DNA from: Escherichia coli
Lineage (GTDB): Bacteria; Pseudomonadota; Gammaproteobacteria; Enterobacterales; Enterobacteriaceae
DNA length: 37,002 nt
Strand: one strand, 5' to 3'
NCBI RefSeq assembly: GCF_003334815.1
Contig: NZ_QOWO01000037.1
Both the position numbers and the translations under genes were made by a program. The notes under the pieces were generated by a model that saw nothing but the letters and a program-made list of their open reading frames with translations, did not search any database and was not told where the DNA came from. The stretch's first letter is position 1; each line of letters starts with the position of its first letter. Shown one piece after another: positions 3,429 to 3,545 of this stretch.

Positions 3429-3499
3429 GCGTCTTAAAACTCCTGTGGTGCACAACTCTCGGCTTTAGAGGGCACAGAGAATAGCACGGAAAGAGAGTA

Positions 3500-3516
3500 A
3501 GGAAAACGGTTGCGTG
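3500..3516 (-). promoter_or_regulatory. putative PurR operator (pur box) upstream of purEK
   Basis: Minus-strand reading ACGCAACCGTTTTCCT is a near-match to the pur-box consensus ACGCAAACGTTTTCNT (one mismatch), about 75 nt upstream of the purE start. Confidence 0.5.
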
Positions 3517-3545
3517 GCTGTGAAATCAGCAAAGTTGCGGGTTTT

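Follow-up and report, generated by a model that had tools for sequence, protein, structure and literature searches.

Sequences that resemble the operator of the purine repressor PurR can arise by chance in any long stretch of DNA, and the question raised by the region upstream of purE in Escherichia coli is whether the resemblance found there marks the site through which the purEK operon is controlled and, if so, by what means that control is exerted. PurR is a dimeric repressor of the LacI family whose binding to DNA is promoted by hypoxanthine or guanine (2024 review; PMC12858057). On PUR boxes the 2024 review refers to Tiedeman et al. 1989 and to Meng et al. 1990; its reference for the control of pur genes by PurR is He et al. 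1990. Here we follow up a preliminary description, made from the letters alone, of a box of this kind in a stretch of 37,002 nucleotides of E. coli DNA, which we refer to as the window.

The lpxH-purE intergenic region

The genomic setting is the E. coli chromosome: 401 bp around the box match all 5426 of 5426 complete E. coli genomes, many of them at 100% identity. The RefSeq annotation of an identical genome, which agrees with the open reading frames found in the window, gives the gene order as ylbF and ybcF on the plus strand, then purK, purE, lpxH and ppiB, all on the minus strand, and then cysS on the plus strand. In that annotation purE, the first gene of the regulated operon, encodes N5-CAIR mutase (169 aa) and occupies 2919..3428 on the minus strand, with its ATG at 3428-3426, and purK, the second gene, encodes N5-CAIR synthase (355 aa) and occupies 1855..2922 on the same strand, the start of purK and the stop of purE overlapping by 4 nt. 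The upstream neighbour of purE is the co-directional gene lpxH (3546..4268, minus strand), which lies outside the operator and whose stop codon, TAA, is at 3548-3546. The interval 3429-3545, to which the box had been assigned, is exactly the lpxH-purE intergenic region, of 117 bp.

Within this region the box, ACGCAACCGTTTTCCT, is an imperfect 16-bp palindrome at 3500..3515 on the minus strand, with a central CpG at 3508/3507. Its plus-strand form is AGGAAAACGGTTGCGT and it lies 72 nt from the purE ATG. The preliminary description had the sequence and the strand right; the span it gave, 3500-3516, was one base too long, the 16 bp running from 3515 to 3500. It had also placed the box in a region shared with the 3' end of lpxH, which is not the case: 30 nt separate the lpxH stop codon from the box, which has no overlap with lpxH coding sequence.

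Elsewhere in the window we note a tRNA gene (Rfam RF00005) at 15067-15140 on the plus strand, scoring 72.1 bits, and a sok antitoxin RNA (Rfam RF01794) at 36606-36761 on the plus strand, scoring 84.4 bits, which points to a toxin-antitoxin locus of the hok/sok type close to the window's end.

Match of the box to PurR motifs

The number of mismatches between the box and the PurR consensus depends on the consensus that is chosen. Against ACGCAAACGTTTTCNT the box agrees at all but one position, as had been claimed, the sole mismatch being C for A at position 7, whereas against the ChIP-derived ACGNAAACGTTTGCNT there are two mismatches on either strand. A consensus search that allows up to three mismatches has no power in a sequence of this length, with 1.63 matches expected per window, and the search was rerun at one mismatch. 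With ACGCAAACGTTTTCNT and at most one mismatch, the purE box was the only match in the 37 kb, where dinucleotide shuffles lead one to expect 0.01 per window.

A scan with a PurR matrix had been proposed as the means of checking the box, and for this we used a log-odds matrix built, leaving one out, from the 27 other PurR motifs of Table 1 of Cho et al. 2011, with both strands scanned. With 19.4 bits (z = 5.0) the box outscored every other position in the window, and thus stood high rather than low against the background of the window, which has a mean of -28.7 and a standard deviation of 9.6. Among the 28 published PurR sites, each scored with itself left out, it ranks 13, in a range of 7.4-25.1 bits. 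Of 300 simulated windows of 37 kb (Markov-1), 17 had a score of at least 19.4 bits at some position, and this frequency, taken together with the size of the 117-bp target, puts the chance of such a site upstream of purE at about 2e-4.

Two further matches in the window were found with the same matrix. The second-best, GGTAAAACGATTGCGC, at 8033-8048 on the minus strand, scores 15.4 bits and sits in the early codons of a folD-like open reading frame (codons 8-13, DGKTIA). As folD leads to 10-formyl-THF for purine synthesis, a PurR site at this position would make sense; the list of Cho et al. 2011 holds no ChIP-chip peak there, and it may be that the sequence is fixed by protein constraints alone. 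A weak match, AGCGTACCGTTTGCGC, at 30337-30352 on the plus strand, scores 12.4 bits, a level reached by chance in simulated sequence.

Published evidence for PurR upstream of purE

The binding of PurR upstream of purE has been reported both in vivo and in vitro. Cho et al. 2011 (PMC3159470) reported a ChIP-chip region for purE-purK at 552,127-552,626 of MG1655 and, within it, the motif AGGAAAACGGTTGCGT at 552,395-552,410, and the purE box is the same as this motif both in its sequence and in its 72-nt distance from the purE ATG. Occupancy of purE-purK by PurR in that study responded to adenine, with log2 values of 2.08 when adenine was present and 0.86 when it was not, and purEK was counted among the operons of the IMP pathway that are repressed by PurR-hypoxanthine. 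In a more recent study (PMC12858057; PLoS Pathogens, 2026) purified PurR shifted a purE promoter fragment in a concentration-dependent manner in EMSA, and guanine or hypoxanthine enhanced the shift; a mutant of the PurR ligand pocket still bound the purE promoter but did so without responding to guanine or hypoxanthine. The same study reports that PurR control of purE matters for the fitness of ExPEC in blood. Neither the EMSA, done on a promoter fragment, nor the ChIP-chip peak, with its width of about 500 bp, amounts to proof of base-by-base contact. In vitro binding of PurR with hypoxanthine or guanine as corepressor is also a matter on which the work of He et al. from 1990 reportedly bears.

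The features of a Pur box that can be examined in a sequence, namely a palindrome with a central CpG, the matrix score, the location at a promoter and conservation by clade, are all found here, and the remainder is reported in the literature. The published motif is identical, the ChIP-chip peak and the EMSA agree with it, and so do the matrix score and the placement relative to the -10 and -35 elements described below. The box is therefore almost certainly the single PurR operator of the E. coli purEK operon. This operator is already known and is a textbook regulatory element, and its identification in the window is no new biology.

The purE promoter and the mode of repression

In a simple scan of 3300-3800 for σ70 promoters no promoter was called, which we attribute to a -35 element that agrees with the consensus at only 3 of 6 positions, and we located the purE promoter through conservation across species and a published transcription start site. 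Kim et al. 2012 (PMC3415461, supplementary file 2) mapped the purE start to position 552,365 of NC_000913 on the minus strand, with 32 reads and a 5' UTR of 42 nt, and gave as its upstream sequence CAGCCACGCAACCGTTTTCCTTGCTCTCTTTCCGTGCTATTCTCTGTGCCC, which includes both the box and the -10 element. Converted by means of the purE ATG (552,323 being 3428 of the window), the start (+1) falls at 3470 on the minus strand, and the box therefore spans -45 to -30. An extended -10 element, TGcTATTCT, is found at 3478..3486 on the minus strand; its TG is at 3486-3485 and its hexamer, TATTCT, at 3483-3478, or -13 to -8, a position that fits the published start. The pattern TGnTATnnT is present in all 30 of the 30 Enterobacterales that we aligned; between it and the box is a variable spacer of 13 nt, which puts the start of the hexamer 16 nt from the box. 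A putative, weak -35 hexamer, TTTTCC (3 of 6 against TTGACA), can be assigned to 3501..3506 on the minus strand, or -36 to -31, by its 17-bp spacing from the conserved -10 element and by the published start, and it lies wholly inside the box. Locating these elements relative to the box was the second check that had been proposed, and the outcome is that expected for a repressor site: the box covers the putative -35 hexamer and lies upstream of the extended -10.

The rest of the 42-nt 5' UTR (3429..3469, minus strand) holds a Shine-Dalgarno sequence, AGGAG, at 3444-3440, in a region whose motif, CACAGGAG, is kept across the Enterobacterales. We considered a riboswitch or other leader element at purE and rejected this explanation, since neither the lpxH-purE intergenic region nor the purE 5' UTR has a match to any Rfam family.

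These positions suggest how PurR might act. When hypoxanthine or guanine is abundant, a corepressor-bound PurR dimer would bind the imperfect 16-bp palindrome at 3515..3500, which at -45 to -30 would take in the -35 hexamer; the promoter relies on its extended -10, and the bound PurR would sterically exclude RNA polymerase, at the contacts made by σ region 4 and the α-CTD, and so block initiation at purEK. When purines are scarce, PurR would be left without its corepressor and would dissociate, and purEK would be transcribed from the start at 3470. The identity of the site, its adenine-responsive occupancy in vivo, the stimulation of binding by corepressor in vitro, the position of the start and the conservation of the box and the -10 element are shown by published data or by the computations described here, whereas we infer that occlusion of the promoter is the mode of repression at purE. 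With the -35 region lying under the operator, and the promoter dependent on its extended -10, steric exclusion is the best-supported form that repression could take. Cho et al. 2011 (PMC3159470) say much the same of PurR sites in general, which they place between the -35 and -10 elements and regard as acting on initiation.

It is possible that PurR at the box has an additional role, one that would not exclude occlusion of the promoter, in which it acts as a roadblock to transcripts that run from ppiB-lpxH into purEK. Such read-through is possible given that 3516-3545 contains no structure resembling an intrinsic terminator: the scan of 3300-3800 found no terminator-like hairpin in the 30 nt that separate the box from the end of the co-directional lpxH, and the folding of this region was no better than that of shuffled sequences (z = 0.57). 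There is a precedent at purB and purR, where, according to Cho et al. 2011 (PMC3159470), PurR blocks elongation. Against this, purE has a dedicated start in the data of Kim et al., and the position of the box over the -35 region suffices to explain repression. We consider this additional role unlikely, and occlusion of the purE promoter remains our preferred account.

Variation within E. coli

Relative to K-12 MG1655, the intergenic region of the strain analysed here differs by a single nucleotide: minus-strand position 3498, at -28 relative to the start and two bases past the 3' end of the box, is A where K-12 and most E. coli have G. An exact 42-mer that covers the box and the -10 element was found by megablast in only 133 of the 5426 complete genomes. 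We examined whether this small number reflects poor conservation and rejected that reading, because the alignment shows one SNP, and that outside the box; the number is small because the SNP at 3498 breaks the 28-bp seed on which a megablast match of 42 bp depends.

A larger difference concerns the sequence upstream of the box. Similarity to the window breaks off at query position 87 in about 1,000 genomes (5426 minus 4400); this position corresponds to 3515, where the box starts. We examined two of these strains, and in both the interval between lpxH and purE holds a hypothetical, strongly hydrophobic open reading frame of 109 aa whose end is 8 nt short of the box. Its product is WP_001188438 or WP_001188440 (loci L084, L085 and L087:1896-2225; boundary at 3515/3516) and has no match in NCBIfam. 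Escherichia albertii shares the upstream sequence of these variant E. coli strains and retains the box from its first base. The upstream sequence has thus been replaced and the box retained, from which it follows that the box travels with purE and not with lpxH. We note that the retention of the box where a different gene precedes it fits a block to read-through and a role in initiation alike.

Conservation of the box across species

A scan anchored on PurE, with one genome per species, gave 80 loci, and at each of them the PurR matrix was run over 300 nt of sequence upstream of purE; the pattern by clade accordingly concerns boxes upstream of purE only, as scored from sequence. A box of at least 17 bits (17.4-25.2) was found in 29 of the 33 other Enterobacterales sampled. 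The genera and species with a box include E. albertii, Citrobacter, Leclercia, Kluyvera, Klebsiella, Mangrovibacter, Brenneria, Serratia and Pantoea stewartii, and also Hafnia, Erwinia, Rahnella, Pectobacterium, Yersinia, Photorhabdus, Acerihabitans, Providencia and Arsenophonus. Related boxes are present upstream of purE at both of the two Vibrio loci (21.5 and 25.2 bits) and at four of six in the Pasteurellaceae (15.5-18.9 bits). Alpha-proteobacteria, Firmicutes and other gamma-proteobacteria have no box upstream of purE. As a negative control, these clades, with Marinobacterium, Psychrosphaera and others, mostly score below 8 bits; two isolated matches among them, of 11.6 and 12.5 bits, lie far from purE. 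Three insect-symbiont Pantoea have no box in the 300 nt upstream of purE, and Candidatus Pantoea persica has a degraded one, GGCGAACCGTTTTCCT, of 8.0 bits (the four loci are L011, L022, L028 and L046). The loss or decay of the box in these Pantoea is consistent with the loss of PurR regulation in reduced genomes.

When the regions upstream of purE from 30 Enterobacterales were aligned with the box as anchor, the information content per column rose from 0.24 bits in the 25-nt 5' flank to 1.88 within the box, then fell to 0.61 over the spacer before reaching 1.59 at the extended -10, and the identical 16-mer was found in 20 of the 30. From Escherichia to Yersinia the box is almost invariant, and this includes bases that depart from the consensus: C at position 7, T at position 13 and CC at positions 14-15. 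In the Pasteurellaceae the distance from the box to the -10 element varies from 7 to 18 nt, so there the PurR pattern has been kept though the position of the box within the promoter shifts.

This pattern bears on whether the box might be conserved mainly as an element of the promoter, or as a site for another member of the LacI family such as RbsR, with PurR playing a secondary part. RbsR has been reported to bind some pur promoters, the putative -35 hexamer lies inside the 3' half of the box, and the non-consensus bases (C at 7 and the 3' TCCT) are as conserved as the consensus bases, all of which would fit such an explanation and the last of which hints at some constraint besides affinity for PurR. 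A -35 element does not, however, account for the conservation of all 16 bp, which extends to the 5' half, ACGCAAC, upstream of the hexamer, nor for the fact that what is conserved is the PurR palindrome with its central CpG, and in the Pasteurellaceae this palindrome persists while its distance from the -10 element shifts. As for another regulator, we found no data on one at purE, whereas occupancy by PurR and binding that depends on its corepressors are documented. We regard a merely secondary role for PurR as very improbable.

That the box is a chance resemblance to the PurR consensus with no regulatory role can be dismissed with near certainty: matches at three mismatches are indeed to be expected by chance and 19.4 bits is reached in some of the simulated windows, but a match with at most one mismatch is not to be expected, and this one occupies part of the 117 bp that precede an operon for purine biosynthesis, is nearly invariant in Enterobacterales whose flanks are not, falls under a published PurR ChIP peak and is in a promoter fragment that binds PurR in EMSA.

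Discussion

The purE box, then, is to be read as the operator through which PurR controls purEK. It couples two steps of de novo purine synthesis, those catalysed by N5-CAIR synthase and N5-CAIR mutase, to the intracellular pool of hypoxanthine and guanine. The result also has value as a control, in that a reading of the raw sequence made without tools had correctly found a real operator of 16 bp.

Consensus and non-consensus bases of the box are equally conserved, which suggests that the sequence is under dual constraint, as an operator and as a -35 element. On this proposal the -35 hexamer of an extended -10 promoter would be supplied by the 3' half of the box, and the deviations of the box from the palindromic optimum would have been selected for promoter strength together with an affinity for PurR below the maximum, rather than having arisen by drift. 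We put this forward tentatively, as an idea with a reasonable chance of being right but with the balance of probability somewhat against it. If true, it would be a refinement of a known system and not a new one.

Compared with the published purEK operator of MG1655, the box described here has the same sequence, the same distance from the purE ATG and the same structure, an imperfect palindrome of 16 bp with a central CpG. The published operator depends on the corepressors hypoxanthine and guanine and overlaps its promoter, as most PurR sites do. We find no difference of substance between the two; the strain analysed here has A instead of G at 3498.

The best-studied PurR site is the operator of purF, which was reportedly the DNA used by Schumacher et al. 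in 1994 for crystal structures of PurR with hypoxanthine and DNA. It conforms to the same consensus, and its motif, AAGAAAACGTTTGCGT, has a score similar to that of the purE box (21.9 as against 19.4 bits). With C in place of A at position 7 of the half-site ACGCAAAC, the purE box is slightly further from the palindromic optimum than the purF operator. The intragenic sites of purB and purR involve the same protein and the same motif as the purE box. They differ from it in position and in mode of action: the purB and purR sites lie inside transcribed or coding sequence and are described as blocking elongation, whereas the purE box, upstream of +1 and over the -35 region, would be expected to block initiation.
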